Both the position numbers and the translations under genes were made by a program. The notes beneath the pieces were generated by a model, which did no database searches, was not told where the DNA came from, and worked only from the letters and a program-made list of their open reading frames with translations. From Candidatus Marinacidobacterium sp. (GTDB taxonomy: Bacteria; Acidobacteriota; Vicinamibacteria; Marinacidobacterales; Marinacidobacteraceae), in the NCBI GenBank assembly GCA_965202845.1, contig OZ241856.1, forward strand, positions 1,155,886 to 1,219,885: DNA of 64,000 nt, read 5' to 3'. Positions 7,280 to 44,289 of the stretch are shown piece by piece. Within the stretch, counting starts at the first letter, position 1; the number at the start of each line of letters is the position of its first letter.

Positions 7280-7887
7280 AAGACATCCTCGCGGCTTCCG
7301 AGTACGCCGCGTTCCAGGAGCGGCTGGCGCGAAGCGACTGCCGACGGTGCCCGCTCGGCGAAACCCGCACCCGCATCGTGGTGGATCGGGGGACGCCGCA
7401 AGCGCGCCTGCTGGTGGTGGGCGAGGCGCCGGGCGCCGCCGAGGACGCCTCCGGCGTCGCGTTTTGCGGACGGGCCGGCACGATGCTGGACCGGCTGGTC
7501 GCCGACGCCGGACTGTCCCCCGGCGAGGACCTCCTGATCGTGAACGTGGTCAAGTGCCGCCCGCCGGGAAACCGCGCGCCCACTCCGGAGGAAGCCGAAG
7601 CCTGCCGCCCCTTCCTCGACAAGCAGCTTGGCTTCTCCCCGGCCCGGATGGTGGCGCTGCTGGGCCGCACCGCGCTGCGGCGCTTCGCGCCCGACCGCGC
7701 CCGTCGTCCGATGGGGGAGCAGGCGGGACGCTTCTTCCGGATCGCCGGGCATCCGGGGCGCGAGTTCGCGGTTCTCTACCACCCGGCGGCGATCCTCTAC
7801 AACCGGCGGCTGGAGCCGACGGCGCGGCGGCACATGGAGGCGGTCGCCGCCCGGCTGTCTACCGGAACAGCGAACGCCGGGGGCTGA
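7276..7887 (+). CDS. uracil-DNA glycosylase, family 4 (Fe-S type)
   Basis: CRRCPLGETRTRIVVDRG...LLVVGEAPGAAEDASGVAFCGRAGTMLDRL, the family-4 UDG signature. The TTG start overlaps the mutase stop (TTGA). Confidence 0.75.
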
Positions 7888-8539
7888 GCTCCCGGATCAC
7901 CGGCCAGTCCCAAGCATGCCGCGTCCCCTGCGGAAGCGCGCCGACGTCCCGGTGGTAGCGCCGCAGGAACGCCTCGGTGCCCTCGTTCGCGTAGCCGGCG
8001 CCGTGGACGGGACCGAGCTCCTCGCCGCACCGCTCCCGGTAGTCGCGGCGGATCCGGTTCAGGAGTTCGGCGAACAGCCGATCCCGCCGCACCTTGGCGA
8101 TGACGCTGGCGGCGGCCACCGCCACGTGGCGGGACTCGGCCCGGTCCCGCGCCTCCATTTCGGGAACCTCGGTGGCGAGACTCCCGAACACCTTCTCTCC
8201 GTCGGCGAGGATCCGCCGGGGCTTCCGGTCGGCGGGGATCGCGGCGAGCAGCGAACGCGCCGCCTCGCGCTCCAGCAGGTTCAGTTCGCCGACCAGTGCG
8301 CGGCGATCCACTTCCTCCGCCGACAGCGCGCGAACCCCCACCCACTCGGCCAGTCGCTCGACGTGGCGGGCCAGCTGGCCGCGGCGGCCGGCGGCCGGAC
8401 CGCCCGCTCCGAAATGCTTCGAGTCCCGCACGCCCAAGCGGGTCAGGGCGCCGGCGCGACGGGGATGGAGGAGCACCGCGGCCACCACCAGCGGCCCGAG
8501 CGCCGGTCCGCGGCCCGCTTCGTCGATGCCCAGAACCAC
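7859..8539 (-). CDS. rnhB: ribonuclease HII
   Basis: N-terminus VLGIDEAGRGPALGPLVVAAV... with RNase HII fold motifs. GTG start. Confidence 0.9.
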   Translation of the reverse strand: MVLGIDEAGRGPALGPLVVAAVLLHPRRAGALTRLGVRDSKHFGAGGPAAGRRGQLARHVERLAEWVGVRALSAEEVDRRALVGELNLLEREAARSLLAAIPADRKPRRILADGEKVFGSLATEVPEMEARDRAESRHVAVAAASVIAKVRRDRLFAELLNRIRRDYRERCGEELGPVHGAGYANEGTEAFLRRYHRDVGALPQGTRHAWDWPVIRELSPRRSLFR

Positions 8540-8583: not shown

Positions 8584-10038
8584 ATGAAACGGGGCGAAGG
8601 GCGGTACAACGCCGTCGTCATCGGCGCCGGAACCGCCGGGCTGGTGACCGCGGCCGGGACCGCCGGACTCGGCGGGCGGACCGCGCTGGTCGAAGCGCGA
8701 CGGATGGGCGGGGACTGCCTGAACACCGGGTGCGTGCCTTCCAAGTCGCTGGTCTCCACCGCGAAGCAGATCCACCGGATCCGCAACGCGGAAGCCCACG
8801 GGCTGGACGCGAACGAACCGAAGTTCCGCTTCGAGCGGGTGTTCGAACACATGCGCGAACGTCGGGCGCACATCGCCCCCCACGACTCGGTGGAGCGATT
8901 CGAGGGACTGGGAGTGGACGTATTCCAGGCGCGGGCGCGCTTCACCGGACCGCGCGAAGTGGAGCTGGACGATGGAACCCGGCTGACCGGCGCCCACTTC
9001 GTGATCGCCACCGGCGCCAGCCCCCTGATCCCGGACATCCCCGGCCTCCGGGACGTCCCGTACTGGACCAACGAGACGTTCTTCGACGGCCAGGACGGCC
9101 CGCCCGATGCGTTGCTGGTGTTGGGAGGCGGTCTCGTCGGCTGCGAGTTGAGCCAGGTGATGCGGCGGCTGGGAGTCCGGGTGACCCTCCTGACCGACGT
9201 GGACCGGCTGCTTCCGCACGACGACCGGGAGGCCTCGCAGGTTGTCCTCGAGGCGTTCCAGGCGGAGGGCATCGAGGTTTTCTTCGGCTGCAAGGTTCGG
9301 AGGTTCACGCAATCCAGCGGCGCCATCACCGCCGAGGTCGAAACCGGGGGCGCGGTGCGCGAGGTCTCCGGCGACCGGCTTCTGGTGGCCGTCGGACGCT
9401 CGCCGAACGTGTCCGATCTCGGACTCGAGAAGGCGGGGGTGCGTTTCGACCCGCAGCAGGGAATCCCGGTGGACCGGAGTCTGCGGACCAACATCCCGCA
9501 CATCCACGCCTGCGGCGACGTGACGGCCGAACCCTTCCGCTTCACCCACGCCGCCGACCACCAGGCGCGGGTGGCGGTGCGGAACATCCTGCTGCCTCCC
9601 CCGTTTCCCCGCGCCCGGGTGGACTACAGATACCTGCCCTGGGTGACGTATGTGGACCCCGAAGTCGCCCATTTCGGCCTCCGGGAAGAGGACGCGGAGG
9701 AGCAGGGCGTCCCGGTGGACGTCCATCGGTATCCGATGAGCGACCTGGACCGGGCGATCACCGAAAATGCGACCCGCGGGTTCGTGAAGGTGGTCGCCGC
9801 CCGGGGGAAGGACCGCATCCTGGGGGCGACCGTGGTGGCGGATCGGGGCGGCGAAATCCTCCACCAGATCATGGCGGTGGCCCGGCAGGGAGGCGGACTC
9901 GGCGCGCTCTCCTCGATGATCCACGCCTATCCTTCCTGGGCGCAGGCGGCGCAGCGGGTCGGTGACGCCTGGAACCGGACCCGGCTGACGCCCCGGACCC
10001 GGGCCCTCTTCGAGTGGCTCTACCGGAGGCGGCGATGA
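8584..10038 (+). CDS. FAD-dependent pyridine nucleotide-disulfide oxidoreductase, class I (dihydrolipoyl dehydrogenase or mercuric-reductase-like). It has no C-terminal Cys pair.
   Basis: GxGxxG sequence VVIGAGTAGL. Redox-active disulfide motif GGDCLNTGCVPSK. The C-terminus carries HAYPSW (cf. the HAHPT interface motif). Confidence 0.8.
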   Translation: MKRGEGRYNAVVIGAGTAGLVTAAGTAGLGGRTALVEARRMGGDCLNTGCVPSKSLVSTAKQIHRIRNAEAHGLDANEPKFRFERVFEHMRERRAHIAPHDSVERFEGLGVDVFQARARFTGPREVELDDGTRLTGAHFVIATGASPLIPDIPGLRDVPYWTNETFFDGQDGPPDALLVLGGGLVGCELSQVMRRLGVRVTLLTDVDRLLPHDDREASQVVLEAFQAEGIEVFFGCKVRRFTQSSGAITAEVETGGAVREVSGDRLLVAVGRSPNVSDLGLEKAGVRFDPQQGIPVDRSLRTNIPHIHACGDVTAEPFRFTHAADHQARVAVRNILLPPPFPRARVDYRYLPWVTYVDPEVAHFGLREEDAEEQGVPVDVHRYPMSDLDRAITENATRGFVKVVAARGKDRILGATVVADRGGEILHQIMAVARQGGGLGALSSMIHAYPSWAQAAQRVGDAWNRTRLTPRTRALFEWLYRRRR

Positions 10039-10718
10039 AGCGCATCCTGGCGCTGGGAGCGGTCGTCGCGGTCCTCGTCGCCTCGTTCCTCCTGTTTCCC
10101 TTGGGAGCGTGGTTCGAGGCGGCGGCCCGCTGGGCGGAGGGACTCGGACCCACCGGTCTCGCCCTCTTCGCCGCCATCTACGCGGTCGCCACCGTCCTCA
10201 TGATCCCCGTCTCGGCGCTCACCCTGATCGGCGGCGCCGCCTTCGGCTTCGCCCTGGGGACGCTGAGCGTCTGGCTGGGCGCCGTCGTCGGGCTCGGGCT
10301 GGCCTTTCTGGTGGCCCGCCGGTTCGCCCGCGAGCGGGTGGCCGCCTGGCTGGAGAACCGTCCCGGCTTTCGGGCCATCGACCGGGCGGTCGCATCCGAG
10401 GGCTGGAAGATCGTGCTGCTCACCCGGCTCTCCCCGGCCTTCCCGTTCTCGCTCCAGAATTACGCCTACGGCCTCACCGGGGTCCCGTTTCCCGGATACC
10501 TGATCGCGTCGGCGGTCGGCATCCTGCCGGGAACCCTGCTCTACGTCTACATCGCGAGCGGCGTGGCGGGCGCCGTCTCCGGCGCGAGCGGCGCGCTCCA
10601 AATCGCGCTGTGGGCGGCGGGGCTGGTCGCCATCGCCCTGGTCACCGTCCGGATCACCCGGACCGCCCGGCGGGCGCTCCGGGAAGCCGGAGTGGACGCC
10701 GAATCGACGCCCGCATGA
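10035..10718 (+). CDS. TVP38/TMEM64 (DedA/SNARE-associated) family membrane protein
   Basis: Polytopic membrane protein with the DedA-type core (...LTRLSPAFPFSLQNYAYGLTGVPF...). The ATG overlaps the upstream stop (ATGA). Confidence 0.8.
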   Translation: MKRILALGAVVAVLVASFLLFPLGAWFEAAARWAEGLGPTGLALFAAIYAVATVLMIPVSALTLIGGAAFGFALGTLSVWLGAVVGLGLAFLVARRFARERVAAWLENRPGFRAIDRAVASEGWKIVLLTRLSPAFPFSLQNYAYGLTGVPFPGYLIASAVGILPGTLLYVYIASGVAGAVSGASGALQIALWAAGLVAIALVTVRITRTARRALREAGVDAESTPA

Positions 10719-13423
10719 CGTGGAAACGGCTCGCCGCCGCCGGAACCGCCCTCCTGCTGGTCAACTCCGGCTACCTGCTGGCCGCCCGGGAAGCCACCCT
10801 GCTCCACGCGGCGCAGATCCTGCTGCATCCGCTGCTGGCCCTGGCCGTCCTCAAGGTTCTCGCCTTCGATCACCGGCGGATCCGGGCGGCGCTTCGGGCG
10901 GAGCCGCTGCGGGCCGCCTTCCTCGGAACCGGCGCAGTCGTGGTCCTGAGCGGCGTCGGTCTCGTCATCCTGGGCGCCAACCGCCCGCTGCTGATCGCGC
11001 ATCTCGCCGCCGCCGCCGGATTCGCCCTGCTGCTGGCGCGCCGGCGGGTGTTGCTCGCTCCGCTTCTGGTCGCCGTCTCGATCCCGGTCGGCGGACTGCT
11101 CCGGGGCCTTCTTCCCGAAACCGAACCCGCGCTGAACGCCGGCCTGCCTCCCGCCGCCATGGCCGGCGAGGCGATGGGCGGCGCCTCCGGCCCCTTCTAC
11201 CCGTCGGCGGCGGCCACCGCGGACGGGGAGCTCATCCCGGCGGAGTTCTTCATGGGGAGCGACGCCTGCGGACGCTGCCACCAGGACATCACCCGGCAGT
11301 GGGAGGACTCCGCCCACCGGTTCGCCTCGTTCAACAACCCGTGGTACCGCCGCTCCATCGAGTACATGCAAAGCGTGGTCGGCGTCACCCCCTCCAAGTG
11401 GTGCGCCGGCTGCCACGACCACGCGGTCCTGTTCTCCGGCCTGATGGACAAACCGATCGAGGAAATCGTGGACTTGCCGGCGGCGAACGCCGGTCTGGGC
11501 TGCGTCTCCTGCCATGCGATCACCCGGGTCCGGAACACCATGGGGAACGCCGGCTTCGTGATCGAGTATCCGGAGATGAACGACCTGGCGTCGTCCGAAG
11601 ACCCGCTTCTCCGAACCCTCCATGACCTGGTGATTCACCTGGACCCGGAGCCGCACCGCCAGGCCTTCCTGAAGCCCATCCACCAGGGGGACAGCTCGGC
11701 CTTCTGCTCGACTTGCCACAAGGTGCACCTGGACGAACCGGTGAACCACTACCGCTGGCTGCGCGGGTTCAACAGCTACGACAACTGGCAGGCGAGCGGC
11801 GTCTCCGGCCACGGCGCCCGCTCCTTCTACTACCCCGAAGAGACCAGCACGTGCGCCGACTGCCACATGCCGCCGGTTCCCGGCGAGGATCCGGCGGCCC
11901 GGGACGGGCTGATCCGCTCGCACCGGTTCGCCGCCGCCAACACCGCGCTTCCGGTCCACTTCGGGCGCGACCAGCAACTCCAGGCGGTGCGCGACTTCCT
12001 GGCGGCCGGTCAGGTGACGGTGGACATCTTCGCGCTGACCCGGGGCGGCGGCGCGGCGCCGGACGATGAAGGCCCGGACCGGGAAGCCGCCGATCCCCTC
12101 ACCCTCGCCTCCACCTTCGCGGTGGGCGAGGAGGCGATGCCGGCGCCCGCCCGCTACCAGGCGGCCGGCCCCGCCGGCGCGCTCACCGCGCCGCTCGACC
12201 TGGAACGTCCGGCGCTCCAGCCCGGCGAGTCGGTGCGGGTGGACGTCGTGGTGCGGACCCGGAAGGTGGGGCACTTCTTTCCCAGCGGGACGGTGGACGC
12301 CCACGACGTGTGGCTGGAATTCCGGGCGGAGGACGCCTCCGGGCGCGCCTTCTTCTGGAGCGGCTTCACCGAGGGCGAGGACGCTCCGGTGGAGCCTTCG
12401 GCCCACTTCTTCCGCTCGCTGATGCTGGACGAGCGCGGAAACCCCATCAACAAGCGAAACGCCTGGGCGGCGCGGAGCGCGCTGTACGTCACCCAGATCC
12501 CGCCGGGAGCGGCCCATACGGTCCGCTACCGGGTCCGGATTCCGGAGGACGCCGTCGGGCCGGTGAAGCTGACCGCGCGCCTCAACTACCGGAAATTCGC
12601 CTGGTGGCACACCCAGTGGGTCTTCCGGGGGACGCCGCTCAGCGACGGCGAGGTCGCGCCCGGCTTTGACGACCGCACCTGGGTGTTGGATCCCGACCGG
12701 GAAGCTCCCGATGTGCCGATCGTCACCATGGCGTCGGCGGAGCTGGAGCTTCCGGTGGGCGAGGCGGTTCCCCCGGCGGAGGGGGACGCCCGGGACGTCG
12801 CGCTCCGGTTCAACGACTACGGAATCGGGTTGCTGCTCCAGGGCGACCTGCGGGGAGCGGAGGCGGCCTTCCAGCGGGTGGCCGAGCTGGACCCGTCCTT
12901 CCCCGACGCCCCGGTCAACCTGGCGCGGGTCCGAATCCAGGAGGGGGATCCCGAGGGCGCGCGGGACGCCGCCGATGCGGCGCTGGCGCTTTCGCCCCGG
13001 CTGCCGCGGGCGCTCTTCTTCCGGGCGATGGCGCTGAAGGCGCTGGGGCGCTACGACGACGCGCTCCGGGATCTCCGGGTGGTCGCGGAGGCCCACCCCG
13101 GCGACCGGGTGGTGAACAACCAGATCGGCCGCCTCCTCTTCCTGAAGCGGGAGTACGCGGAGGCGGCGGCCGTCCTCGAGCGGACGCTGCGGATCGACCC
13201 GGAGGATCTGGAGGCCCACTACAACCTGATGCTGGCGGCGCGCGGCCTCCGGGACGCCGAAGGCGCCGCCCGGCACCAGGAGCTCTATCTGCGCTTCAAG
13301 GCGGACGAGTCGGCGGACGCCACCGGCGGGGACTACCGGCGAACCCACCCCGAGGACAACAACGAGCGGCTTCCGATCCACGAGCACCGGAACGGGCTCG
13401 ACGGCGCCTCTCCCGGCCCATAG
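10715..13423 (+). CDS. membrane-anchored pentaheme c-type cytochrome with a C-terminal tetratricopeptide-repeat (TPR) domain
   Basis: About four N-terminal TM helices. Five CXXCH motifs (CGRCH, CAGCH, CVSCH, CSTCH, CADCH). C-terminal TPR-like repeats (...ALKALGRYDDALRDL..., ...EAHYNLMLAARGL...). The ATG overlaps the DedA stop (ATGA). Confidence 0.75.
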   Translation: MTWKRLAAAGTALLLVNSGYLLAAREATLLHAAQILLHPLLALAVLKVLAFDHRRIRAALRAEPLRAAFLGTGAVVVLSGVGLVILGANRPLLIAHLAAAAGFALLLARRRVLLAPLLVAVSIPVGGLLRGLLPETEPALNAGLPPAAMAGEAMGGASGPFYPSAAATADGELIPAEFFMGSDACGRCHQDITRQWEDSAHRFASFNNPWYRRSIEYMQSVVGVTPSKWCAGCHDHAVLFSGLMDKPIEEIVDLPAANAGLGCVSCHAITRVRNTMGNAGFVIEYPEMNDLASSEDPLLRTLHDLVIHLDPEPHRQAFLKPIHQGDSSAFCSTCHKVHLDEPVNHYRWLRGFNSYDNWQASGVSGHGARSFYYPEETSTCADCHMPPVPGEDPAARDGLIRSHRFAAANTALPVHFGRDQQLQAVRDFLAAGQVTVDIFALTRGGGAAPDDEGPDREAADPLTLASTFAVGEEAMPAPARYQAAGPAGALTAPLDLERPALQPGESVRVDVVVRTRKVGHFFPSGTVDAHDVWLEFRAEDASGRAFFWSGFTEGEDAPVEPSAHFFRSLMLDERGNPINKRNAWAARSALYVTQIPPGAAHTVRYRVRIPEDAVGPVKLTARLNYRKFAWWHTQWVFRGTPLSDGEVAPGFDDRTWVLDPDREAPDVPIVTMASAELELPVGEAVPPAEGDARDVALRFNDYGIGLLLQGDLRGAEAAFQRVAELDPSFPDAPVNLARVRIQEGDPEGARDAADAALALSPRLPRALFFRAMALKALGRYDDALRDLRVVAEAHPGDRVVNNQIGRLLFLKREYAEAAAVLERTLRIDPEDLEAHYNLMLAARGLRDAEGAARHQELYLRFKADESADATGGDYRRTHPEDNNERLPIHEHRNGLDGASPGP

Positions 13424-13430
13424 CCCCGCG

Positions 13431-15610
13431 TCAAGCCCGCTTCCGCAGCCGGAGCGCGTTCAGGACGACGGAAAGCGACGAGAGCGCCATCGCCAGCGCC
13501 GCCGCCTCCGGAGCGATCAGCACCCCGGCGAGCGGGTGGAGGACGCCCGCCGCCAGCGGGATCGCCGCCAGGTTGTACCCGAAGGCCCAGCCGAGGTTCT
13601 GGCGGATCACCCGCACCGCGCGTCGGGCGGTCCGGATGGCGTCGCCGGCAAGCCGGAGGTCCGCCCGCATCAGCGTGACCCCGGAGGCGGCGCGGGCGAT
13701 GTCGGCGCCGCTGGCGAGGGCGATGCCCACATCGGCGTGCGCCAGCGCCGGAGCGTCGTTGAGGCCGTCCCCCACCATCGCCACCGGTCCGAAGTGGGCG
13801 CGCAGGCGATCCAGCTCGGCGCGCTTCCCTTCCGGACGCAGCTCCCCCATCGACTCGGTGAAGCCGAGATCCCGCCCGACCGCGGCGACCGCTCCCGAGG
13901 CGTCGCCGGAAAGGAGCGCCACCGGAAACCCCTCCTCCCGGAGCCGGCGCACCGCCGCCGCCGCCTCCGGGCGCGGCTGGTCGCGGAACCCCACCGAGCC
14001 GATCCACTCCCCGTTCCGGAACGCGTGCAGCCGCGCCGAGGCGTCGCCCGCTTCCCCCGGATCCCAGCCCGGCAGGACCCGATGGCTTCCGACCCGCATG
14101 GATTCCCCGGTCGGAAGGGTCGCGGAGACCCCGCGTCCGGGAAGGGCCTCGAACCGCTCGGGGCGCACTGGACGAATTCCCTGCGCTTCGGCGAACCGCA
14201 CCAGCGCCAGCGCCAACGGATGCTCGGAGACCGATTCAGCGGACGCGGCGAGCGTCAAGAACTCGTCTTGCGACACCCCCTGGGCGGTCCGCACCTGGAG
14301 CGCTTCGGGTTCGCCCGAAGTGACCGTTCCGGTTTTGTCGAAAGCCACCGCCCGCACCGAAGCCAGCCGTTCGATGGCCTCCCCGTTCCGGAACACGATG
14401 CCCCGCCGGGCCGATTCGCCGGTGGCCACCACCACCGCGATCGGGGCCGCCAGCCCGACCGCGCAGGGACAGGCGACCACCACCACCGCGATCGCGCGCG
14501 CCAGCGCGAACCCGGCGCCGGCGCCGGCGAGCAGCCAGCCCAGCAGGGTCAGCACGCCGATCGCCATGACCGCGGGCACGAAGACCGACGCCACCCGGTC
14601 GGCGATCCGCTGGAGCGGGATTTTCTCGGACTGCGCCTGCCGCACCGCGGCGGCGATGCGGGCGAGCGTGCTCTCCGGCGCGGCGCGAAGCGTCTCGATT
14701 TCGATCCAGCCGCTTCGGTTCAGGGCGCCGCCCGCCACCGTCTCGCCCGCGACCCGGTCCACCGGCGCGCTCTCCCCGGTAAGGAGCGACTCGTCGATCG
14801 CCGCGCCTCCCTTCAGGATGCGGCCGTCGAGCGGAATCCGTTCTCCCGGACGCACGCCCAGCACGTCTCCCACCCGCACCTCGTCCAGCGGAACCTCCTC
14901 GGACTCGCCGTCCTCCCCCCGGATGCGCCGCGCCGTCTCCGGCGCCAGCAGCAGGAGCTTGCGCAGCGCGTCGGACGCCCGCCCGCGCGCCCGGGACTCG
15001 AGCCACCGACCGAAGGTCACGATGGCGACCAGCATGGCGGCGACGTCGAAGAACAGGACGTCCGCCGCGCCGAAGCCCAGGAGATGCGCCATCGACGCGC
15101 CGTAGGCGGCGCCGGCGCCCAGACCGATCAGGCTGTCCATCCCGTAGGAGCGACGCCGGAAGTCCAGAACCAGCGCCTTCAGGTAGCCCCGACCCAAGCC
15201 GAAAAGAACAGCGGTGGCGCACAGGAACTGAAGCAGCATCCCGGACTGGCCGGGAAGCGCCCCGCTCATCCCGGCCGCCATGCCGAAGAGCGCCAGCAGC
15301 AGTCCCAGGACGACCCGGGACGTCCGGGGACCGTCGTCCGCCGAAAAGGCGACGCTCCGCTCCGAATCGGACCACTCCAGCCGATACCCGGCGCGTTCCA
15401 CCGCACTGACCAGCGCCGGACGCATGGCGCCGGAAACGAGACCTTCGTCCAGGGTCACCGCGAGGGCGCCGGTGGCCAGATTGGCGTTCGCCGCAGCCAC
15501 TCCCGGTGTGTCGAGCACGGCGCGCTCCACCCCGGCCACGCACCCGGCGCAGTGCATGCCGACGACCCGGCCGACGACCCCGCCCACGACACGACTGGCG
15601 CGAGTCTCCA
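13431..15610 (-). CDS. copA: heavy-metal (copper) translocating P1B-type ATPase
   Basis: N-terminal heavy-metal-associated domain GMHCAGCVAGVE. Motifs CPC, DKTGT and GDGLNDAPAL. Start at METRAS. Confidence 0.85.
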
Positions 15611-35876: not shown

Positions 35877-35915
35877 CGCCGGGAATGTTAGGAGGACGCG
35901 ATAATCCCCGCTCCC

Positions 35916-38195
35916 GTGTTCCGACGTTCCGGTCTCTGCATCCTCCTCCTCGCCGCCGCCTGCGGCGGAGGCGTCGATCCGATCCGGCCGCTGAACGTGG
36001 TGGTGGTGACCCTGGACACCCTCTCCGCCCGGCACCTGAGCCCCTACGGCAGCGAGCGGATCCGCACTCCGGCCTTTGAGCGGGTCGCCGCCGAGGGCGT
36101 CCTCTTCGAGCAGGCCACCGCGAGCGTTCCGCTCACCCTGCCCTCGCACGCCACCATGTTCACCGGAACCCACCCGATGTTCCACGGAGTCCGGGACAAC
36201 GGCGGCTACCCGGTCCCGGACTCGGCGGAGACGCTGGCCGAAACGCTCGCCGCCGCCGGGTATCGCACCGGCGGGTTCATCGGCGCCTTCGTCCTGGATT
36301 CGCGCTGGGGGCTGGACCAGGGCTTCGAGCGCTATTTCGACGACTTCGACTTCGGGGAATTCGAATCCTTCGGGCTGGACACCGTCCAGCGCCCCGGCAA
36401 CGAGGTGCTGGACGCCGCCCTCGACTGGATGGGGCAGGTGCGGGAGGAGCGGTTCTTCGCCTGGATTCATTTCTACGACCCGCACTGGCCCTACGAGCCG
36501 CCGGAGCCTTGGCGCTCCCGGGTCGGCGACTACCGGGAAGCCCGCTACGACAGCGAGGTGCTGTTCACCGACTTTCTGGTGGGGCGGCTGCTCGACTGGC
36601 TGGACGCGAACGCCCTCGTTCGGGACACCCTGCTGGTTCTGATCGCCGACCACGGGGAGAGTCTGGGGCGGCACCAGGAGACCGCCCACGGGTTCTTCAT
36701 CTACGACGCCTCGATGCAGGTGCCCTTCCTGGTGCGCGCCCCCTACCGCCAGATCGCCGGCGGCCGGCGGGTGGCCGCCCAGGTGCGGGGCGTGGACCTG
36801 ACGCCCACCGTCCTGGACCTGGTGGGGGTGGGCATCCCGGAGGCGGTCCAGGGCGAGAGCCTGCTGCCGCTGCTGGACGGGTCGGTGGAGGACCTGGGGC
36901 TTTGGGCCTACAGCGAGAGCTTCTATCCCCGGAACCACTACGGCTGGGCGCCGCTCCACGCGCTGCGTAACGGGTTGCTGCACTTCATCTCCGCCCCCCG
37001 CCCGGAGATCTACGAGATCGCGGCCGACCCCGGGCAGCGGCGGAATCTGGCCGGCGAACGCCCCGGACAGCTGGAGCAGCTGGAGGCGCGGCTGCGTCGC
37101 ATGATGGCCGGATACGCATCGGGAGTGGAACGCCCGGCGCAGATGGTGGACGAGGAGACGCGCGCCCGGCTGGCGGCGCTCGGCTACCTGGGCGGAACCG
37201 CGCCGGTTCCGGTCCGGGACGAATCCGACCTCGCCGACCCCAAGGACAAGGTGCATCTCTACAACCTGCTGAAGCTGGCGGGAACCGATTCGAGCGAGGG
37301 CCGGATCGACGAGGCGATGGCTTCGGTGCGCCGGGCGCTCGCCGAGGATGCGGGCATCCTGGAAGCCCACCTGATCCTCGGCAACCTGCACCGGAAGCGA
37401 CGGGCTTGGGACGAGGCCATCGCCGCCTACCGGGACGCGCTGGCGCTGGACGAGAACTACAAATCGGCGGTGCTGGGGCTCGCCGACGCCTACCGGCTGG
37501 CCGGGCGCTCCGCCGAAGCGGAGGCCGGCTACCGACGGCTGCTGGAGCTGGACCCGAACGACAACATCGGCGCCTTCCACCTCGCCGGCATCCTTGCCGG
37601 GCGGGAGAATTGCGACGGCGCGCTCGAAACGCTGGCCCGGCTGGAGGGCGCCGGAGAGATGCAGGCGCCGGCCCGGAACCTGAAGGGCGAGTGCCTGCTC
37701 AGCCTGGAGCGCCTCGACGAGGCCGAAATCGAATTTCGGCTAGCGCTCGAACGGGACGAACGGCTTTCCGAAGCCTGGTACAACCTCGCGCTGCTCCACG
37801 AGGAGCGGGGCGAAGCCGATGCGGCCCTCCGCGCCTACGAGGCCCGCCTGGAGCAGGCGCCCCGGGACTTCCGCTCGCACTTCAACCTCGCCCGGCTGTT
37901 CGGCGCCCTGGGGGACCGGGAGCGCATGGAGGCCGGCTTCCGCGACGCCATCGCCTACAACCCCGAATTCGCAGTCGGGCATCTCCATCTCGCCAAGGCG
38001 CTTCTCGACCGGGGCGCCCTCGAGGAGGCGGAGGACATGGCGCGCCGGGGAAACGCGCTCGACCCGCCGCCCGACATGGCGCCCTTCGGCTACTTCGTCC
38101 TCGCCGACATCTACAGCCGCCTGGGGAGGCGCGCCGACGCCGAGCGCGCGTTCCGCCGAGGCGAAACCCTGCGCCGCCAAGGAGAACAACCATGA
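35916..38195 (+). CDS. sulfatase family lipoprotein with a C-terminal TPR domain
   Basis: Lipobox LLLAAACGG. The sulfatase N-domain has TLDTLSARHL but lacks a C/SxPxR formylglycine motif, so it is more like the sulfatase/phosphoglycerol-transferase superfamily, with LIADHGE. About 300 aa of TPR repeats follow at the C-terminus. GTG start. Confidence 0.8.
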   Translation: MFRRSGLCILLLAAACGGGVDPIRPLNVVVVTLDTLSARHLSPYGSERIRTPAFERVAAEGVLFEQATASVPLTLPSHATMFTGTHPMFHGVRDNGGYPVPDSAETLAETLAAAGYRTGGFIGAFVLDSRWGLDQGFERYFDDFDFGEFESFGLDTVQRPGNEVLDAALDWMGQVREERFFAWIHFYDPHWPYEPPEPWRSRVGDYREARYDSEVLFTDFLVGRLLDWLDANALVRDTLLVLIADHGESLGRHQETAHGFFIYDASMQVPFLVRAPYRQIAGGRRVAAQVRGVDLTPTVLDLVGVGIPEAVQGESLLPLLDGSVEDLGLWAYSESFYPRNHYGWAPLHALRNGLLHFISAPRPEIYEIAADPGQRRNLAGERPGQLEQLEARLRRMMAGYASGVERPAQMVDEETRARLAALGYLGGTAPVPVRDESDLADPKDKVHLYNLLKLAGTDSSEGRIDEAMASVRRALAEDAGILEAHLILGNLHRKRRAWDEAIAAYRDALALDENYKSAVLGLADAYRLAGRSAEAEAGYRRLLELDPNDNIGAFHLAGILAGRENCDGALETLARLEGAGEMQAPARNLKGECLLSLERLDEAEIEFRLALERDERLSEAWYNLALLHEERGEADAALRAYEARLEQAPRDFRSHFNLARLFGALGDRERMEAGFRDAIAYNPEFAVGHLHLAKALLDRGALEEAEDMARRGNALDPPPDMAPFGYFVLADIYSRLGRRADAERAFRRGETLRRQGEQP

Positions 38196-40318
38196 ACATC
38201 CACCGCTTCGCCCCCATCCTGCTCGCTGTCGCGCTCGGTTGCGGCGGCTCGAACAACCCCACCACGGAGTCCATGTCGGAAAACCCTCTCCTCACCGAAA
38301 GCGCGCTGTTGCATCGCCTGCCGCCGTTCGACCGGATCCGGGACGAGCACTACCTCCCGGCGTTCGAGCGGGGCATGGCCGAGGACCTCGCCGAAGCGGA
38401 GCGGATCGCCGCGCTCGACGAGCCGCCCACCTTCGAGAACACGATCACGCCGATGGAGAGCGGTTCGCCGCTGCTGTCCCGGGTCTCGCGGGTGTTCTTC
38501 GGCCTTTCGTCGGCGCACACCAACGACGCCATGAACGCGATCCGGGAGGAGATCTCGCCGAAGCTCGCCGCCCACGCCGACCGCATCCTGCTGAACCCGG
38601 ACCTGTTCGCACGGGTCCGGGCCCTCCACGACGCCCGGCATGACAGCGGCCTCGACGCCGAGCAGGTCCGGCTGGTCGAGGAATACCACCGGAACTTCAT
38701 CCGCGCGGGCGCCAATCTCTCCGAGGAGCAGAAGGAGCGGATGCGCGCAATCAACTCCCGCCTCGCCTCGCTCGGCGCTTCCTTCACCCGGAATGTTCTG
38801 GATGAAGTGAACGCCTCGGCGGTGGTGGTGGACACCGAGGCGGAACTTGACGGACTGGACGAAGGCGAAATCGCCGCCGCCGCCGAAGCCGCCAGGGCCC
38901 GGGATCTGGAAGGCAAGTTCGTGATTCCGTTGCTGAACACCAGCGGCCAACCGGCGCTTGCGAGCCTCACCGACCGGGACCTTCGCGAGCGGATCCTGCG
39001 CGCCTCGCTCGCCCGCGGCAGCAGCGGCGGCGAGTATGACAACCGGGAGATCATCACCGAAATCGCCCGACTCCGGGCGGAGCGGGCGGCCCTGCTCGGC
39101 TATCCGCATCACGCGGCGTTCGTTCTGGAGGAGCAGACGGCCGGCACGGTGGAGGCGGTTCACGAGCGGCTGGCGGCGCTCACCCCGGCGGCGGTCCGGA
39201 ACGCCCGCCGGGAGGCGGCCGCATTGGAACGGGCAGCCCGCGCCGAGGGAGCGGACATCGAGATCGCCGCCTGGGACTGGCAGTTCTACACCGAGAAGCT
39301 GCGCGCCGAGCTCTACGACTTCGACGCCGCGGCGCTCCGCCCCTACTTCGAGCTGCACAGCGTGCTGGAAAACGGCGTGTTCCACGCGGCGAACCTGCTT
39401 TTCGGGCTGACCTTCGAGGAGCGGCCGGAGCTGCCGACCTACCAGGAGGACGTGCGGATCTGGGAAGTCTTCGACCACGACGGCTCTTCGCTCGGGCTTT
39501 TTCTCGGCGACTTCCACGCCCGCCCGTCCAAGCGCGGCGGCGCCTGGATGAACGCCTACGTTCCGCAGTCGGGGCTTTTGGGGACTCGTCCGGTGGTGGC
39601 GAACCATCTCAACATTCCCGAGCCGCCGGAGGGCGAGCCGACCCTGATGACCTTCGACGAGGTCATCACCCTGTTCCACGAGTTCGGGCACGCCCTGCAC
39701 GGGCTGTTTTCGGATGTGCGCTACCCGACCTTCGCCGGCACTTCGGTTCCCCGCGACTTCGTGGAGTTCCCCTCCCAGGTGAACGAGATGTGGGCGACCT
39801 GGCCGGAAGTGCTCCGCAACTACGCAGTGCACTACCAGACCGGCGAGCCGATCCCCGGCGACCTGCTGGAGCGGGTGCTGGAGAGCCAGACCTTCAACCA
39901 GGGGTTCGCCACCACCGAATACCTGGCCGCCACCCTGCTGGACCTGGCGTGGCACGAACGGGCGGTCTCCGAAATCCCGACCGCCGAGCAGGCGATCGCC
40001 TTCGAGGAGAACGCGCTGGAAGCCGCCGGAGTCGCGTTTCCGCCGACGCCTCCCCGCTACCGCAGCACGTACTTCTCCCACATCTGGGGAAGCGGCTATT
40101 CCGCCGGGTACTACTCGTACATCTGGAGCGAGGTGCTGGACGCCGACAGCGTGGAGTGGTTCCGCGAGAACGGCGGCCCCACCCGCGAAAACGGGGACCA
40201 CTTCCGGGCGACCCTGCTCTCCAGGGGCGGATCGGTGGATGCGATGGAGCTGTTCCGCGCCTTCCGCGGCCGCGACGCCGACATCGCCCCGCTGCTGAAG
40301 CGCCGGGGACTGGAGTAG
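38192..40318 (+). CDS. M3 family metallopeptidase (peptidyl-dipeptidase Dcp / oligopeptidase A-like), lipoprotein
   Basis: AAGGAG RBS before the ATG. Lipobox LAVALGCGG. HEFGH zinc motif. Overall M3A architecture. Confidence 0.85.
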   Translation: MNIHRFAPILLAVALGCGGSNNPTTESMSENPLLTESALLHRLPPFDRIRDEHYLPAFERGMAEDLAEAERIAALDEPPTFENTITPMESGSPLLSRVSRVFFGLSSAHTNDAMNAIREEISPKLAAHADRILLNPDLFARVRALHDARHDSGLDAEQVRLVEEYHRNFIRAGANLSEEQKERMRAINSRLASLGASFTRNVLDEVNASAVVVDTEAELDGLDEGEIAAAAEAARARDLEGKFVIPLLNTSGQPALASLTDRDLRERILRASLARGSSGGEYDNREIITEIARLRAERAALLGYPHHAAFVLEEQTAGTVEAVHERLAALTPAAVRNARREAAALERAARAEGADIEIAAWDWQFYTEKLRAELYDFDAAALRPYFELHSVLENGVFHAANLLFGLTFEERPELPTYQEDVRIWEVFDHDGSSLGLFLGDFHARPSKRGGAWMNAYVPQSGLLGTRPVVANHLNIPEPPEGEPTLMTFDEVITLFHEFGHALHGLFSDVRYPTFAGTSVPRDFVEFPSQVNEMWATWPEVLRNYAVHYQTGEPIPGDLLERVLESQTFNQGFATTEYLAATLLDLAWHERAVSEIPTAEQAIAFEENALEAAGVAFPPTPPRYRSTYFSHIWGSGYSAGYYSYIWSEVLDADSVEWFRENGGPTRENGDHFRATLLSRGGSVDAMELFRAFRGRDADIAPLLKRRGLE

Positions 40319-40329
40319 TCGTACGATTC

Positions 40330-42062
40330 ATGCACGCCCAACCGATAGAATTCCTGAAGCTGCTGAAAGGCGAGCTTCAGTACGTTGTGCCGCGCTGGCA
40401 GCGTCGCTATTGCTGGCGGCATACGGAAATCGAACGGCTGGTCGAGGACCTGCTGGCGATTGCTGACGCAGGTCCGGAAGCCGTACACTACGCAGGCAAT
40501 CTCCTGACGTTCGAGGAAACGGGCGCCGCCGGTGTGCTCAGCACGATCCGCGTCGTCGATGGCCAGCAGCGGCTCACCACGGTAAGCATTCTGATCGAAT
40601 GTATCGCTCAAAAACTCGGTGAGAATGGGCAATGTGGCGATTGGACTCCGAGGATTCTTCGCAATCGTCTTGTCAACCCTGATTGGGAGGATTACAAACG
40701 CATCAAGATTCGACTCCAGGACGGCGATGATGCGGAATACCGTAGCGGCATGGAAGGAAGAAATCCTTCCGGAACCGGAGCCGTCGTCCAAGCATGGAAG
40801 AAAGTGCGAAGCATGGTGGAGCGTACTGACACAACCCGCCTGCTACGGGGACTCGAGCGGCTCCGGGTAGTCAGCATCGGCCTTGACCACACCGACGATC
40901 CGCAGCAGGTTTTCGAGAGTCTGAACGCCACCGGACGCCCGCTCACCGAGAGTGAAAAGGTCAAGAACTGGCTGTTGATGGGTCTCCCGGAGGAGAAGCA
41001 ACAGCAGCTCCACGATGGTCATTGGCGCACAATCGTAGAGGCGCTTGGCGCCGAACACACGACCGAACCCATAGACCATTTTCTCCGGGATGTGATGCGC
41101 TGGCGGACTGGAGAAATGCGCGGCGGCGACAAGACCTACGAACAGCTTCGGCGCTGGGCGCTGAAAGAGAAGCAAGAAGATCGTCCGGCGCTTCTGGCCG
41201 ATTTGGCCCGACTCGCCAAACTCTATGGAATTCTGACCGGGCCACAAAAACACTCCCAAAAGAAAGTGGAAAGGGAAATCCGGCATCTTCGGTATCTCGG
41301 CCTGAATGTCCACCGTCCGTTGAGCTTGCGAATCCTTCACGATGCGAAAACAAATGCATCGGGGATATCCAGCCAGGAATTAGCGAAAATCTTCGCGGGA
41401 ATCGGAACCTGGATCACGCGCCTCTGGCTGGCGGACCGACCGACGACGGGCATGAACAAGGCTGCCGCCGAGCTCGCGCACAGCGAAGGACTGGGCGTCG
41501 GAGAGGACCCCGTGGAGCACTGGTTGCATCGAATCCGCCGACTCCGCAATCAGCATACCGGCGTTCCGAACGACGAAGAGGTTCGGGAAGGCGTTCGCAC
41601 GCGGAACGCCTACGGAGGCGGCGCCAACAGGCCCGCCTTCGCTGTTCTGTGCGCATTGATGGACGCGCAAAACCTGGGTGACGAAATGCTGGATCGCGAT
41701 CCACTCCAGATTGAACACGTGATGCCGCAGAAGTTGACGGAAACATGGAGGCATGATCTCGGTGAAAATGCGGATGAAGTCCATGCGCAACTTCGCAACC
41801 GGCTCGCGAATCTGACTCTGATCGGAGAAGGCGAAAATCCCGGCTTGGGAGCAAGACCGTTTTCGGACAAAAAGAAGGTTTACAAAGAGAGTTCCATCAA
41901 GATGACGCAGCAGCTCGCAAATGAAGAAAAATGGGACGAAGCGACAATCTTGCGACGCGCGGATTCTCTAGCCGACCAGGCGCTTGCGCTGTGGCCCTGG
42001 ACCGACCAACGAACTCCGCCCGCCGAGAAGCAGGACGCTTCCGGATTCCGATGGAAAATTGA
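40330..42062 (+). pseudogene. GmrSD-like type IV restriction endonuclease (DUF262 + DUF1524), 5' portion, interrupted at 42062/42063 by an ISL3 insertion
   Basis: DUF262 motif ...VVDGQQRLTTVSILIE. DUF1524/HNH-like motif ...PLQIEHVMPQKL...W...H...NLTLIGEGEN...FSDKKKVY. GC is lower than the flanks. The ORF then reads without a stop into IS antisense sequence. Confidence 0.7.
42055..42062. repeat. target-site duplication AAAATTGA (left copy)
   Basis: Identical 8-mer immediately flanks both IS ends. Confidence 0.8.
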
Positions 42063-43530
42063 GGCTCTTTCAAATACCGAGTGGGTACGCGACATGAGGG
42101 TTGAGCTTGGAGAAGTCCAGTTTTCCGGCGATGAGGAAGAACACGGTGCGGATGGTCTGGAAGGTTCCGTAGCCTCTGGCTTTCCGCTTGGCCGCCTGAA
42201 ACAGGCCGTTGAGCGCCTCGATGAAGCCGTTGGTCTGGCGGGTTCGGGCCCACGCGACGATGCCCTCGAGATGTTTGCGGATCATCCGCGCGACGGCTTT
42301 CATGGGTTCGACCTTGGAGCGGTTCACGTTGGCGCACCACTGCCGGAGCATGGCTCTGACGACGTTGACCTGCTTGCGGTTGAGGATGTTCCGGAGTTGC
42401 TCGCGGTACATCCAGGCTCGGGCGGTGCGCTTTCCGGGGGCCTGCGCGATGAGAGCGTTGAGTTGGGCGCGCTGTTCGGGGCCGAGTCGTTCGGGATTTT
42501 TGAGGAGCGCCCAGCGCATGCCCTTGAGTTGGGGGTTGGCGCGCTGCTCGATGCGCCGGGTCTGGTCGAGGGCCTTGGATGCGTGAGCGATGACGTGGAA
42601 TTTGTCGAAGGTGATCTGGGCGTTGGGGAGATGCTCTGCGACGCCCTTCATGTAGGCGGGGGACATGTCGATGGAGGCGACTTCGACGGCTTCGGGGTCT
42701 CCGCCGTGGGCTTCGAGGCTTCGGGCGAATCGGTCGACGGAGTCGGCGGCGCGGCCTTCTCCGACGAAGATGACCCGGCGTTTTCGGGCGTCTGCGACGA
42801 CGGTGACGTAGTTGTGGCCGCGCGCGCGGGAGGTTTCGTCGATGGCGACGGCGCGGACGTCGGCTTGGTCGTCGGTTTCGGTGGCGAGTTCCACATAGCG
42901 GTTGGAGATGGCCTGGGTTTGGTGCTGGGAGAGTCCGGCGAGCCGTGCGACGGCGGCGAAGGTCATGTCCTGGCACATGGCGAGAATCAAGGCTTCGAAG
43001 AGGAGGGAGAACCCGGAGAGCTTGCCGGCCCAGGGCGGCGAGACCAGCGCGACCTTGCCGTTGGGGAGGCGCACCCGGGGGACGCGCGCCACCAGTTCGC
43101 ACTCGAATTGGAAGAAGTTGAGGTGGCGGAAGCGCTTGGTCTTGGTGTCGTGGACCGGATGGAGGCCGTCGTGGTTCTGGTGGGCGAAGCGGGCGCCCCT
43201 GCGGAAATCGACGCGGATGCTCAGCTTTCCTTGGTCCTTGTCGAATTCCACGTTCTCGACGAACCAGGGGTCCGGGATGCCGAGGGCTTGGGCGAAAAGC
43301 TCGTGTAGCACTGGATGCGCTCCTTTTTTTCAGGGTCGAAAGCGGGAAAAGTGTTCCATTGGTGTGTGGCGACGCTGGCTGGGGACGGTTGCGGCTTCCC
43401 GCTTTCGACCCTTTTTCGAGCGTGCCCGCCGGATTCCGTGAGTCAAGGGTTCGCTACGCCGTGCAAGCCCGCCCTTGACACCCGGAATCCCGGCGGTCTC
43501 CATTCTACCCACTCAAATCTCAATTGAGGC
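42063..43530 (-). mobile_element. ISL3-family insertion sequence (about 1.47 kb)
   Basis: Left terminal inverted repeat GGCTCTTTCAAATACCGAGTGGGTA. Right terminal inverted repeat ...CTACCCACTCAAATCTCAATTGAGGC (imperfect; they share the GAGTGGGTAG core). Single transposase ORF. 8-bp TSD. Confidence 0.8.
42070..43311 (-). CDS. ISL3 family transposase
   Basis: 413 aa with typical ISL3 transposase sequence (...ASIDMSPAYMKGV...DKFHV...). DDE-type. Confidence 0.9.
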   Translation of the reverse strand: MLHELFAQALGIPDPWFVENVEFDKDQGKLSIRVDFRRGARFAHQNHDGLHPVHDTKTKRFRHLNFFQFECELVARVPRVRLPNGKVALVSPPWAGKLSGFSLLFEALILAMCQDMTFAAVARLAGLSQHQTQAISNRYVELATETDDQADVRAVAIDETSRARGHNYVTVVADARKRRVIFVGEGRAADSVDRFARSLEAHGGDPEAVEVASIDMSPAYMKGVAEHLPNAQITFDKFHVIAHASKALDQTRRIEQRANPQLKGMRWALLKNPERLGPEQRAQLNALIAQAPGKRTARAWMYREQLRNILNRKQVNVVRAMLRQWCANVNRSKVEPMKAVARMIRKHLEGIVAWARTRQTNGFIEALNGLFQAAKRKARGYGTFQTIRTVFFLIAGKLDFSKLNPHVAYPLGI

Positions 43531-43538
43531 AAAATTGA
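43531..43538. repeat. target-site duplication AAAATTGA (right copy)
   Basis: Matches 42055-42062 exactly. Confidence 0.8.
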
Positions 43539-44289
43539 AGACGGTCCATGGAATTCCGAAAAAGAAGGAAGCAAGATGGTTCTCAATGTGACCGGTGCGC
43601 TCCTGGATCTGAATTCTGAAAATTTCAAGCATTTGCGCGGCGATGCGATCAGCGCCAACATTCACCCAACAAGCACCTATTCTTCTGGAAGCACAGTTCA
43701 GTCCCTGAAAATGTTCGCCGTCCCAAGACACACTGATTGGGTAATGTATCCGTACGAAAGAAACTATCCGGCCTATGCGAAACGATGCCACAGTCTGGGT
43801 GAACGATGCGGAATCAATCTCCAAGTCGAAATCATTTCGGACCGGGCCGAGATCACCGAAGCCTTCTGGAAACACCTCATGGAAGTTCATGGCGGCGTCC
43901 CCGGACAGCAGGCGCAATGGCGAGGCAGAAGCCAGAAGACGAAACCTTGCAATTCCCATGGAGACCGCGTTGGAATTGGACTCGGCGAAGACCATATTCT
44001 GATCTACATTCGTGGACGTTCGAAAAATCACGTGACACGAAAAAGAGTTTTCCGTTTTTCACAGATCATGCATGAGGAAATGACGGATCAGTCCATATTG
44101 GGAAATTTGGAAAAAGAGAGCGAAGCTGGCAGGAGTGTTTGGGTCCAGCACGACTGGACACGAGAAGACAGGGACGGTTGGGATGAGGCATGTCGGTGGA
44201 TTCTGGATCAATATGAAAGACTGTGGATGATCTCGCGACGCCCCGATCATGGAGATGGGGAAACGTCTGATCCGGATCGAGAGGTTTGA
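43539..44289 (+). pseudogene. 3' portion of the IS-disrupted GmrSD-like gene: a C-terminal domain of unknown function of about 250 aa
   Basis: After conceptual excision of the IS plus one TSD copy, frame +1 continues without a stop from 40330 to 44289 (828 aa). An internal AAGGAAG-N5-ATG at 43576 could allow separate expression. Confidence 0.5.

Follow-up and report, generated by a model that had tools for sequence, protein, structure and literature searches.

A three-gene flavoprotein, DedA and pentahaem cytochrome c unit in 'Candidatus Marinacidobacterium' as a probable composite of two independently conserved modules

The stretch of DNA analysed here (the window: 64,000 nucleotides of 'Candidatus Marinacidobacterium' sp., contig OZ241856.1) carries three same-strand genes chained by short overlaps. 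They encode a flavoprotein of the disulfide-reductase type (FDR), a membrane protein of the DedA family, and a membrane-anchored pentahaem cytochrome c that ends in an array of tetratricopeptide repeats (TPR). We consider it probable, at roughly 0.6, that these genes form a genuine three-gene unit, and that the unit is a composite of two independently conserved modules, FDR-DedA and the cytochrome, which were joined in one shallow clade of marine Vicinamibacteria. The genes are listed below with their positions in the window (ORF, open reading frame; aa, amino acids).

8584-10038, + strand: FDR gene, ORF of 484 aa
10035-10718, + strand: DedA gene, probably of the YdjX/TVP38/TMEM64 type, ORF of 227 aa, PF09335
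10715-13423, + strand: gene for the membrane-anchored pentahaem cytochrome c with C-terminal TPR array, ORF of 902 aa

Results

Conservation of the three-gene order

Conservation of the triad was assessed across about 90 related loci, including 80 cytochrome loci from a scan of one genome per species, almost all of them from metagenome-assembled genomes (MAGs) of Acidobacteriota. Neighbourhoods were determined by tBLASTn of the window proteins against these loci, and counts are given over loci with enough flanking sequence. FDR and DedA lie directly upstream of the cytochrome gene in 11 of 68 loci. The pair is present in every locus whose cytochrome shares 65% identity or more (11/11) but in none of the more distant loci (0/57), and no FDR or DedA gene was found even within 10 kb of the cytochrome in any of those 57. 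The 11 triad-positive loci belong to Vicinamibacteria and 'Ca. Marinacidobacterium' MAGs. Locus L016 (54% identity) also has FDR and DedA upstream, with an upstream flank too short for it to be counted. Thus, the co-occurrence in related genomes to which an earlier note on this DNA had looked holds for close relatives and for L016, but not for more distant loci.

The two halves are also found apart. In L086 and L087, RNase HII and FDR-DedA are followed by genes for a hypothetical protein, a metallo-beta-lactamase, SIR2 (on the opposite strand) and a Tricorn-like protein before the cytochrome and UnbV genes are reached, and in L091 the genes between RNase HII with FDR-DedA and the cytochrome-UnbV pair encode DUF2461, YceI (opposite strand) and PIN proteins. 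L092 (11531-15171) contains an FDR gene, an Omp85/POTRA gene in the place of DedA, and a 437-aa cytochrome fragment abutting an IS66 transposase, and it looks like a disrupted copy of the FDR-cytochrome arrangement. In L088, RNase HII and FDR-DedA are followed by ilv genes, and in L090, FDR-DedA is followed by DUF547 and molybdopterin oxidoreductase genes; neither locus has a cytochrome gene within the 8-kb flank on each side. Upstream, a block of methylmalonyl-CoA mutase (MCM), UDG and RNase HII genes is syntenic across the clade and partly beyond it. Since these unrelated housekeeping genes are equally syntenic, conserved order within the lineage is not evidence of shared function, and the adjacency of FDR-DedA and cytochrome is accounted for by an inherited gene order from which intervening genes were lost. 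The two modules would have been neighbours in an ancestral synteny block, from which the variable genes between them would have been lost in the window's clade.

These loci also bear on the alternative that the three proteins work as one unit, which would carry cytoplasmic NAD(P)H reducing power to the periplasmic haems or sense redox state, with the flavoprotein docking and the five-helix domain of the cytochrome as conduit. Such a unit would fit the order kept in 11 species-level genomes and in L016, the recurrence of both halves nearby in L086, L091 and L092, and the ATGA sequence at both junctions in the window, L006, L007 and L012. We nevertheless regard it as unlikely, given the 0/57 more distant loci with FDR or DedA within 10 kb, the unrelated and opposite-strand genes that intervene in L086 and L091, the occurrence of FDR-DedA without the cytochrome in L088 and L090, and the equal synteny of plainly unrelated housekeeping genes.

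A CRTAC1-like partner of the cytochrome and a downstream breakpoint

In 60 of 69 loci, the cytochrome gene is followed on the same strand by a gene for a CRTAC1-like protein (FG-GAP and UnbV_ASPIC domains), whose start lies at most 1.6 kb away and which often overlaps the cytochrome gene by 4 bp. All-against-all clustering of neighbouring ORFs gave no other widely shared neighbour of the cytochrome. The constant partner of the cytochrome-TPR family is thus a bacterial CRTAC1-like protein. In the literature searched, we found no description of CRTAC1/UnbV proteins paired with multihaem or TPR proteins, and no function for the bacterial members of this protein class; one paper notes that, in some non-anammox bacteria, hydrazine-synthase-like genes have CRTAC1-family genes between them.

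The CRTAC1-like gene is absent from the whole 64-kb window. The genes downstream of the cytochrome in the window, for an ATPase, def and fmt, are near the cytochrome in no relative, which points to a rearrangement breakpoint exactly where relatives carry the CRTAC1-like gene. We envisage a second rearrangement in the window genome, directly 3' of the cytochrome gene, that would have taken the partner gene out of the neighbourhood. The ATPase is of the P-type (CopA-like, with HMA and E1-E2 ATPase domains); its gene converges on that of the cytochrome, with stops 7 nt apart (13421-13433). A functional tie of the cytochrome to this ATPase through metal reduction was considered and ruled out on the same comparison.

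Downstream of the cytochrome-TPR/UnbV pair, many Acidobacteriota carry two more genes, a second multihaem/TPR gene that has diverged and another UnbV-like gene (at about 14600-16700 in L021, L023-L026, L031, L035, L037, L044 and L047, and at 12929-14953 in L001), which suggests tandem duplication of the pair.

Taken with the more distant loci and the intervening genes, the partner at 60/69 loci divides the proposal of the earlier note, which had read the triad as a transmembrane electron-transfer or redox-sensing module: the genes probably form an operon in this clade, whereas a dedicated module of that kind is unlikely.

Junctions and transcription of the unit

The overlaps that the earlier note had reported are both present, with ATGA at 10035-10038 (FDR stop and DedA start) and at 10715-10718 (DedA stop and cytochrome start). 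The DedA start is preceded by GGAGG at a distance of 6 nt. No Shine-Dalgarno sequence stands in front of the cytochrome start at 10715, and an ATGA overlap of this kind fits termination-reinitiation. The start codon of the cytochrome, on which the second overlap depends, also appears to have been assigned correctly, as the N-termini of homologues align with the MTWKRL encoded from 10715. On the 5' side the unit is flanked by a divergent RNase HII gene (7859-8539, - strand).

A scan of the unit for promoters and terminators, which is weak for this phylum, gave no promoter and one weak hairpin, fewer than in shuffled sequences. Because the unit is gapless, has no internal promoter- or terminator-like sites, and keeps its order in 11 species-level genomes, FDR, DedA and the cytochrome are very probably co-transcribed in the window genome and its close relatives. 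The two junctions differ in their conservation: almost every related locus retains the overlap of FDR and DedA, while that of DedA and cytochrome is not conserved. The latter junction reads ATGA in the window, L006, L007 and L012, spacings of +4 to +16 nt are seen in others, and L016 has 170 nt.

The adjacency could in principle be without any meaning, even for transcription, if a cytochrome promoter lay inside the DedA gene and the overlaps were by-products of compaction. Overlaps of 4 bp are frequent between same-strand genes in compact high-GC genomes; the G+C content of the window is about 71%, and the source contig is only 2.86 Mb. The small gaps in other relatives and the 170-nt spacer before the cytochrome in L016, which is AT-rich, would agree with this explanation. 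It is nonetheless improbable, since the scan, for all its weakness in this phylum, found no promoter- or terminator-like site inside the unit, and the missing Shine-Dalgarno sequence before the cytochrome start favours termination-reinitiation.

The flavoprotein-DedA pair

FDR matches PF07992 (196.8 bits), PF00070 (62.8 bits) and PF02852 (88.8 bits), all above cut-off, and has a redox-active CxxxxC in its FAD domain (GGDCLNTGCVPSK, Cys45/Cys50; CLNTGC at nt 8716-8733). Judged by sequence, it is a class-I pyridine nucleotide-disulfide oxidoreductase with an FAD site, an NAD(P)H domain and a dimerisation domain. Its last 170 residues contain no Cys (none lies beyond residue 310), so a C-terminal Cys pair is missing; class and missing MerA-type pair are both as first described.

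FDR does not fall into a named subfamily. Its best NCBIfam model is NF004991, for an unnamed subfamily of 'FAD-containing oxidoreductase', with a score of 529 bits where 620 are required, and it stays under the curated cut-offs of the MerA, dihydrolipoyl dehydrogenase (LipDH), glutathione reductase, mycothione reductase and RclA models. It shares the fold and the CxxxxC centre with MerA, RclA and LipDH, and solved LipDH and MerA structures were matched at E values of 1e-60 to 1e-70. It differs from them in being below every named equivalog cut-off and in lacking both the NmerA domain and the C-terminal Cys pair. MerA was rejected as an identity (TIGR02053, 358 bits against 454; no HMA match; no C-terminal Cys pair), and so was dihydrolipoyl dehydrogenase (TIGR01350, 340.7 bits against 408.8). 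What we take to be the LipDH signature, HAHPTLSE, reads HAYPSWAQ in FDR. A search of the last 84 residues against the PDB, aimed at the His-Glu dyad, returned spurious matches to TALE repeats. The C-terminal tail of FDR is basic and could lie on the membrane, which would suit a single three-protein unit.

The second gene encodes a DedA-family protein, as had been supposed (PF09335 VTT_dom, 92.7 bits against a cut-off of 33.9). Homologues at 45-60% identity are named 'YdjX (TVP38/TMEM64 family)' by JGI and NCBI, and by these names it is a probable member of COG0398 rather than of COG0586 or COG1238. DedA proteins of COG0398 are most often fused to PF07992/PF02852 domains, and this subfamily is tied to aerobic metabolism, with no known function (Todor et al., mBio 2023, PMC10127716). 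The first two genes of the window unit resemble this association in combining PF07992 and PF02852 with PF09335 through translational coupling, and differ from it in being two separate genes rather than a fusion.

The FDR-DedA pairing is kept in all related loci examined except L092, in line with the earlier statement that such pairs are widespread and of no known function. The two genes thus represent an association that is already known but uncharacterised. Their stable housekeeping neighbourhood and their own translational coupling fit joint working of both proteins. In this first module, a flavoprotein of the MerA/LipDH class, cytoplasmic and dependent on NAD(P)H, would be coupled to a YdjX/TVP38-type DedA protein; the module would act separately at the cytoplasmic face of the membrane.

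Membrane domain and haems of the cytochrome

An AlphaFold2 (AF2) model of the cytochrome was built from 74 homologues, with a mean predicted local distance difference test score (pLDDT) of 78 and a predicted template-modelling score (pTM) of 0.79. Together with family searches and hydropathy, it divides the protein as follows (TM, transmembrane; Ig, immunoglobulin).

10715-11110, + strand: N-terminal membrane domain, five TM helices, N-in/C-out (AF2, hydropathy, loop charges)
11222-12004, + strand: periplasmic pentahaem domain, matching PF13435 Cytochrome_C554 and PDB entry 5ZE8
11267-11281, 11402-11416, 11501-11515, 11705-11719 and 11852-11866, + strand: CXXCH motifs, predicted haem sites
12005-12784, + strand: Ig-like beta-sandwich 'stem', with the invariant loop VGHFFPxGTVD (His520) and His564
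12788-13300, + strand: TPR array, some five repeats (matches at aa ~700-850 to TPR_2, TPR_19 and related Pfam families; AF2 pLDDT 85-97)
13301-13420, + strand: conserved C-terminal tail, RFKADE...PxDNNER..HEH, with columns invariant in 74 homologues and low AF2 confidence

The architecture assigned in the earlier note (several TM segments, five periplasmic CXXCH haems and a C-terminal TPR array) is borne out at the level of sequence. The five predicted helices span residues 3-23, 29-51, 66-86, 90-109 and 114-130 (pLDDT 80-93). The N-terminus, loop 2-3 and loop 4-5 each carry net positive charge, and this positive-inside pattern puts the haem domain in the periplasm. Within the membrane domain, His38 (TM2) and His96 (TM4) are invariant in 74/74 homologues and sit in that half of their helices which faces the periplasm; Gly80 and Gly87 are also invariant, and Asn17 is nearly so.

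The cytochrome has exactly 10 Cys, all of them within the five CXXCH motifs (aa 185, 230, 263, 331 and 380), and all five motifs are invariant in the 74 homologues. A further seven His of the haem domain are invariant or nearly so and are candidate distal ligands, which could allow bis-His ligation of all five haems. No cytochrome c maturation genes (Ccm/CcsBA) were seen among the window genes examined.

The invariant His38 and His96 might be read in favour of a single three-protein unit, in which they would belong to the conduit. Two conserved membrane His in the periplasmic half would hold at most one haem, however, which is too few to bridge from the cytoplasmic flavin, and DedA/VTT proteins are not known to carry a redox cofactor. 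A cross-membrane route from NAD(P)H to the haems is therefore disfavoured: the only possible membrane haem site is on the periplasmic side, DedA brings no known cofactor, and most members of the cytochrome family have no FDR nearby.

Fold and relatives of the cytochrome

A search of the PDB sequences with the full-length alignment profile returned only TPR proteins, and the haem and Ig part was then searched alone. The best structural match other than TPR proteins is 5ZE8, the pentahaem cytochrome c552 of Thermochromatium tepidum (Foldseek E 2.3e-7, target-normalised TM-score 0.60). By phmmer, residues 161-695 matched 5ZE8 at E 2.6e-6, in an alignment that takes in the first haem motifs as well as the Ig-like domain, with a shared HxxPxG loop. 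In the model, an alpha-helical haem domain precedes an Ig-like beta-sandwich, and the two can be superimposed on 5ZE8; the haem cap and Ig stem of the cytochrome have the c552 fold. Cytochrome c552 itself has no assigned function in the literature. His520 and His564 of the Ig domain are both invariant, and the TPR array, at residues ~700-860, is matched by many TPR structures.

Sequence identity to c552 is only about 19%. Cytochrome c552 is described as a soluble protein of ~400 residues (Chen et al. 2019, as cited in PMC11976967). The window cytochrome adds to it the five-helix domain with two invariant His, a conserved insert of ~40 residues (aa 336-374), the TPR array and the tail. Conservation within the family is strongest at aa 336-374 (11720-11836; KVHLD.PVN.YRW.RGFN.YDNWQ.SGVSG.GARSFYYP), where AF2 confidence is <50. 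In the tail, the invariant part is aa 860-891 (13292-13387), 3' of the TPR array.

The family is large, with thousands of matches, more than 120 of them full-length at 51% identity or more, and its members are labelled only 'tetratricopeptide repeat protein' or 'PilF'. At E<=1e-30, the haem and Ig core by itself is found in 719 representatives of 50%-identity clusters. These are mostly 850-1000 aa long, with ~160-200 residues before the match, so that the anchored architecture is the common one. Thus, a large family under TPR and 'PilF' labels consists of membrane-anchored relatives of cytochrome c552 and of the reductase MccSep. We found no account in the literature searched of a membrane-anchored c552-like cytochrome with TPR repeats.

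MccSep/ExtKL, a Geobacter multihaem selenoprotein (PDB 9wt8), is a polysulfide reductase whose catalysis depends on haem 2 being ligated by Cys and on a Sec/Cys in the Ig loop (bioRxiv 10.1101/2025.11.18.688581). That paper gives it a cap-and-stem architecture, which the window cytochrome shares, and a Y-shaped five-haem core; sequence similarity between the two proteins, at haem 1, is weak. MccSep/ExtKL has features of its own: haem 2 is ligated by His and Cys, a DGUP loop holds the catalytic Sec/Cys, and the protein is a soluble tetramer with neither a TM domain nor TPR.

This likeness raises the alternative that the cytochrome reduces polysulfide, sulfur or selenite at haem 2, with FDR and DedA handling the same chalcogen or metal in the cytoplasm. 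The shared c552/MccSep fold, with a haem cap and an Ig stem whose loop reaches towards the haems, would suit such a reductase, as would the invariance of the Ig loop VGHFFPxGTVD, the weak sequence similarity to MccSep (9wt8) and to the ExtKL model of NCBIfam, and the link of a DedA protein to selenite resistance (cited in PMC10127716). The window cytochrome, however, has no Cys beyond the five CXXCH motifs and none is conserved elsewhere in the family, which rules out catalysis of the MccSep type; the ExtKL model (NF040886) reaches 28.6 bits against a cut-off of 250, and the invariant His are sufficient for bis-His ligation of all five haems. A chalcogen reductase of this kind is accordingly a poor prospect.

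In proposed function only, the cytochrome is also comparable to NapC/NirT/NrfH/CymA proteins, which as membrane-anchored multihaem cytochromes c link the quinol pool to periplasmic partners. These have one TM helix, four haems and a different fold family, and there was no NapC/NirT/NrfH Pfam match among the 19 families reported for the window cytochrome.

Discussion

In the composite that we favour, the second module would be a self-anchored periplasmic redox protein made up of the five-helix domain, the five-haem cap with its Ig stem, and the TPR array. His38 and His96, together with the conserved glycines, may form a quinol-oxidising site or bind one haem b near the periplasmic face. The TPR array may dock the secreted CRTAC1-like protein with its FG-GAP beta-propeller and UnbV_ASPIC domain. 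Electrons would then pass from the quinol pool through the membrane domain and the chain of c haems to a site at the interface of haems and Ig loop, or to the docked partner. The two modules, on this account, would presumably have no functional link.

Several observations weigh against this account. The triad order persists to a cytochrome divergence of 69% identity, and in four further lineages (L016, L086, L091 and L092) no more than 5 kb separates the two modules, which is beyond random placement; such repeated proximity could reflect a functional link. The junction sequences imply that translation of the cytochrome depends on that of DedA in the window. The relatives all come from MAGs, the AF2 model, made in the absence of haems, is of middling quality, and the quinol donor, the binding of haem b and the docking of a partner by the TPR array are steps that we infer.

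More tentatively still, the cytochrome-TPR protein and its CRTAC1-like partner might constitute a quinol-linked redox system of the periplasm, new to the literature and widespread in Acidobacteriota; in the window's clade, this system would be wired transcriptionally, and possibly functionally, to FDR-DedA. We put the chances of this well below even.

Elsewhere in the window, a sulfatase domain (PF00884) fused to a long C-terminal TPR array is encoded at 35892-38195 (+ strand), a second enzyme-TPR fusion in the same genome. A 1172-aa ORF at 39790-43308 (+ strand) has GmrSD_N and GmrSD_C domains, which mark it as a type IV restriction endonuclease. The region from 40000 to 44000, which includes the GmrSD ORF, is the only one in the window where G+C falls to ~0.60 from 0.71, and it is probably a horizontally acquired defence island. 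Rfam models found one tRNA and no rRNA in the window.

For the three-gene unit, the comparative evidence makes a new three-component transmembrane electron route unlikely, and so saves the work that a misleading operon would have attracted. The cytochrome-TPR/CRTAC1-like system, an uncharacterised variant within a known fold family, merits study in its own right. Soils and sediments are rich in Acidobacteriota, whose physiology is poorly understood, so that a redox module common among them is a reasonable experimental target. If the wiring of the cytochrome to FDR-DedA is real, it would provide the first functional handle on both orphan modules.

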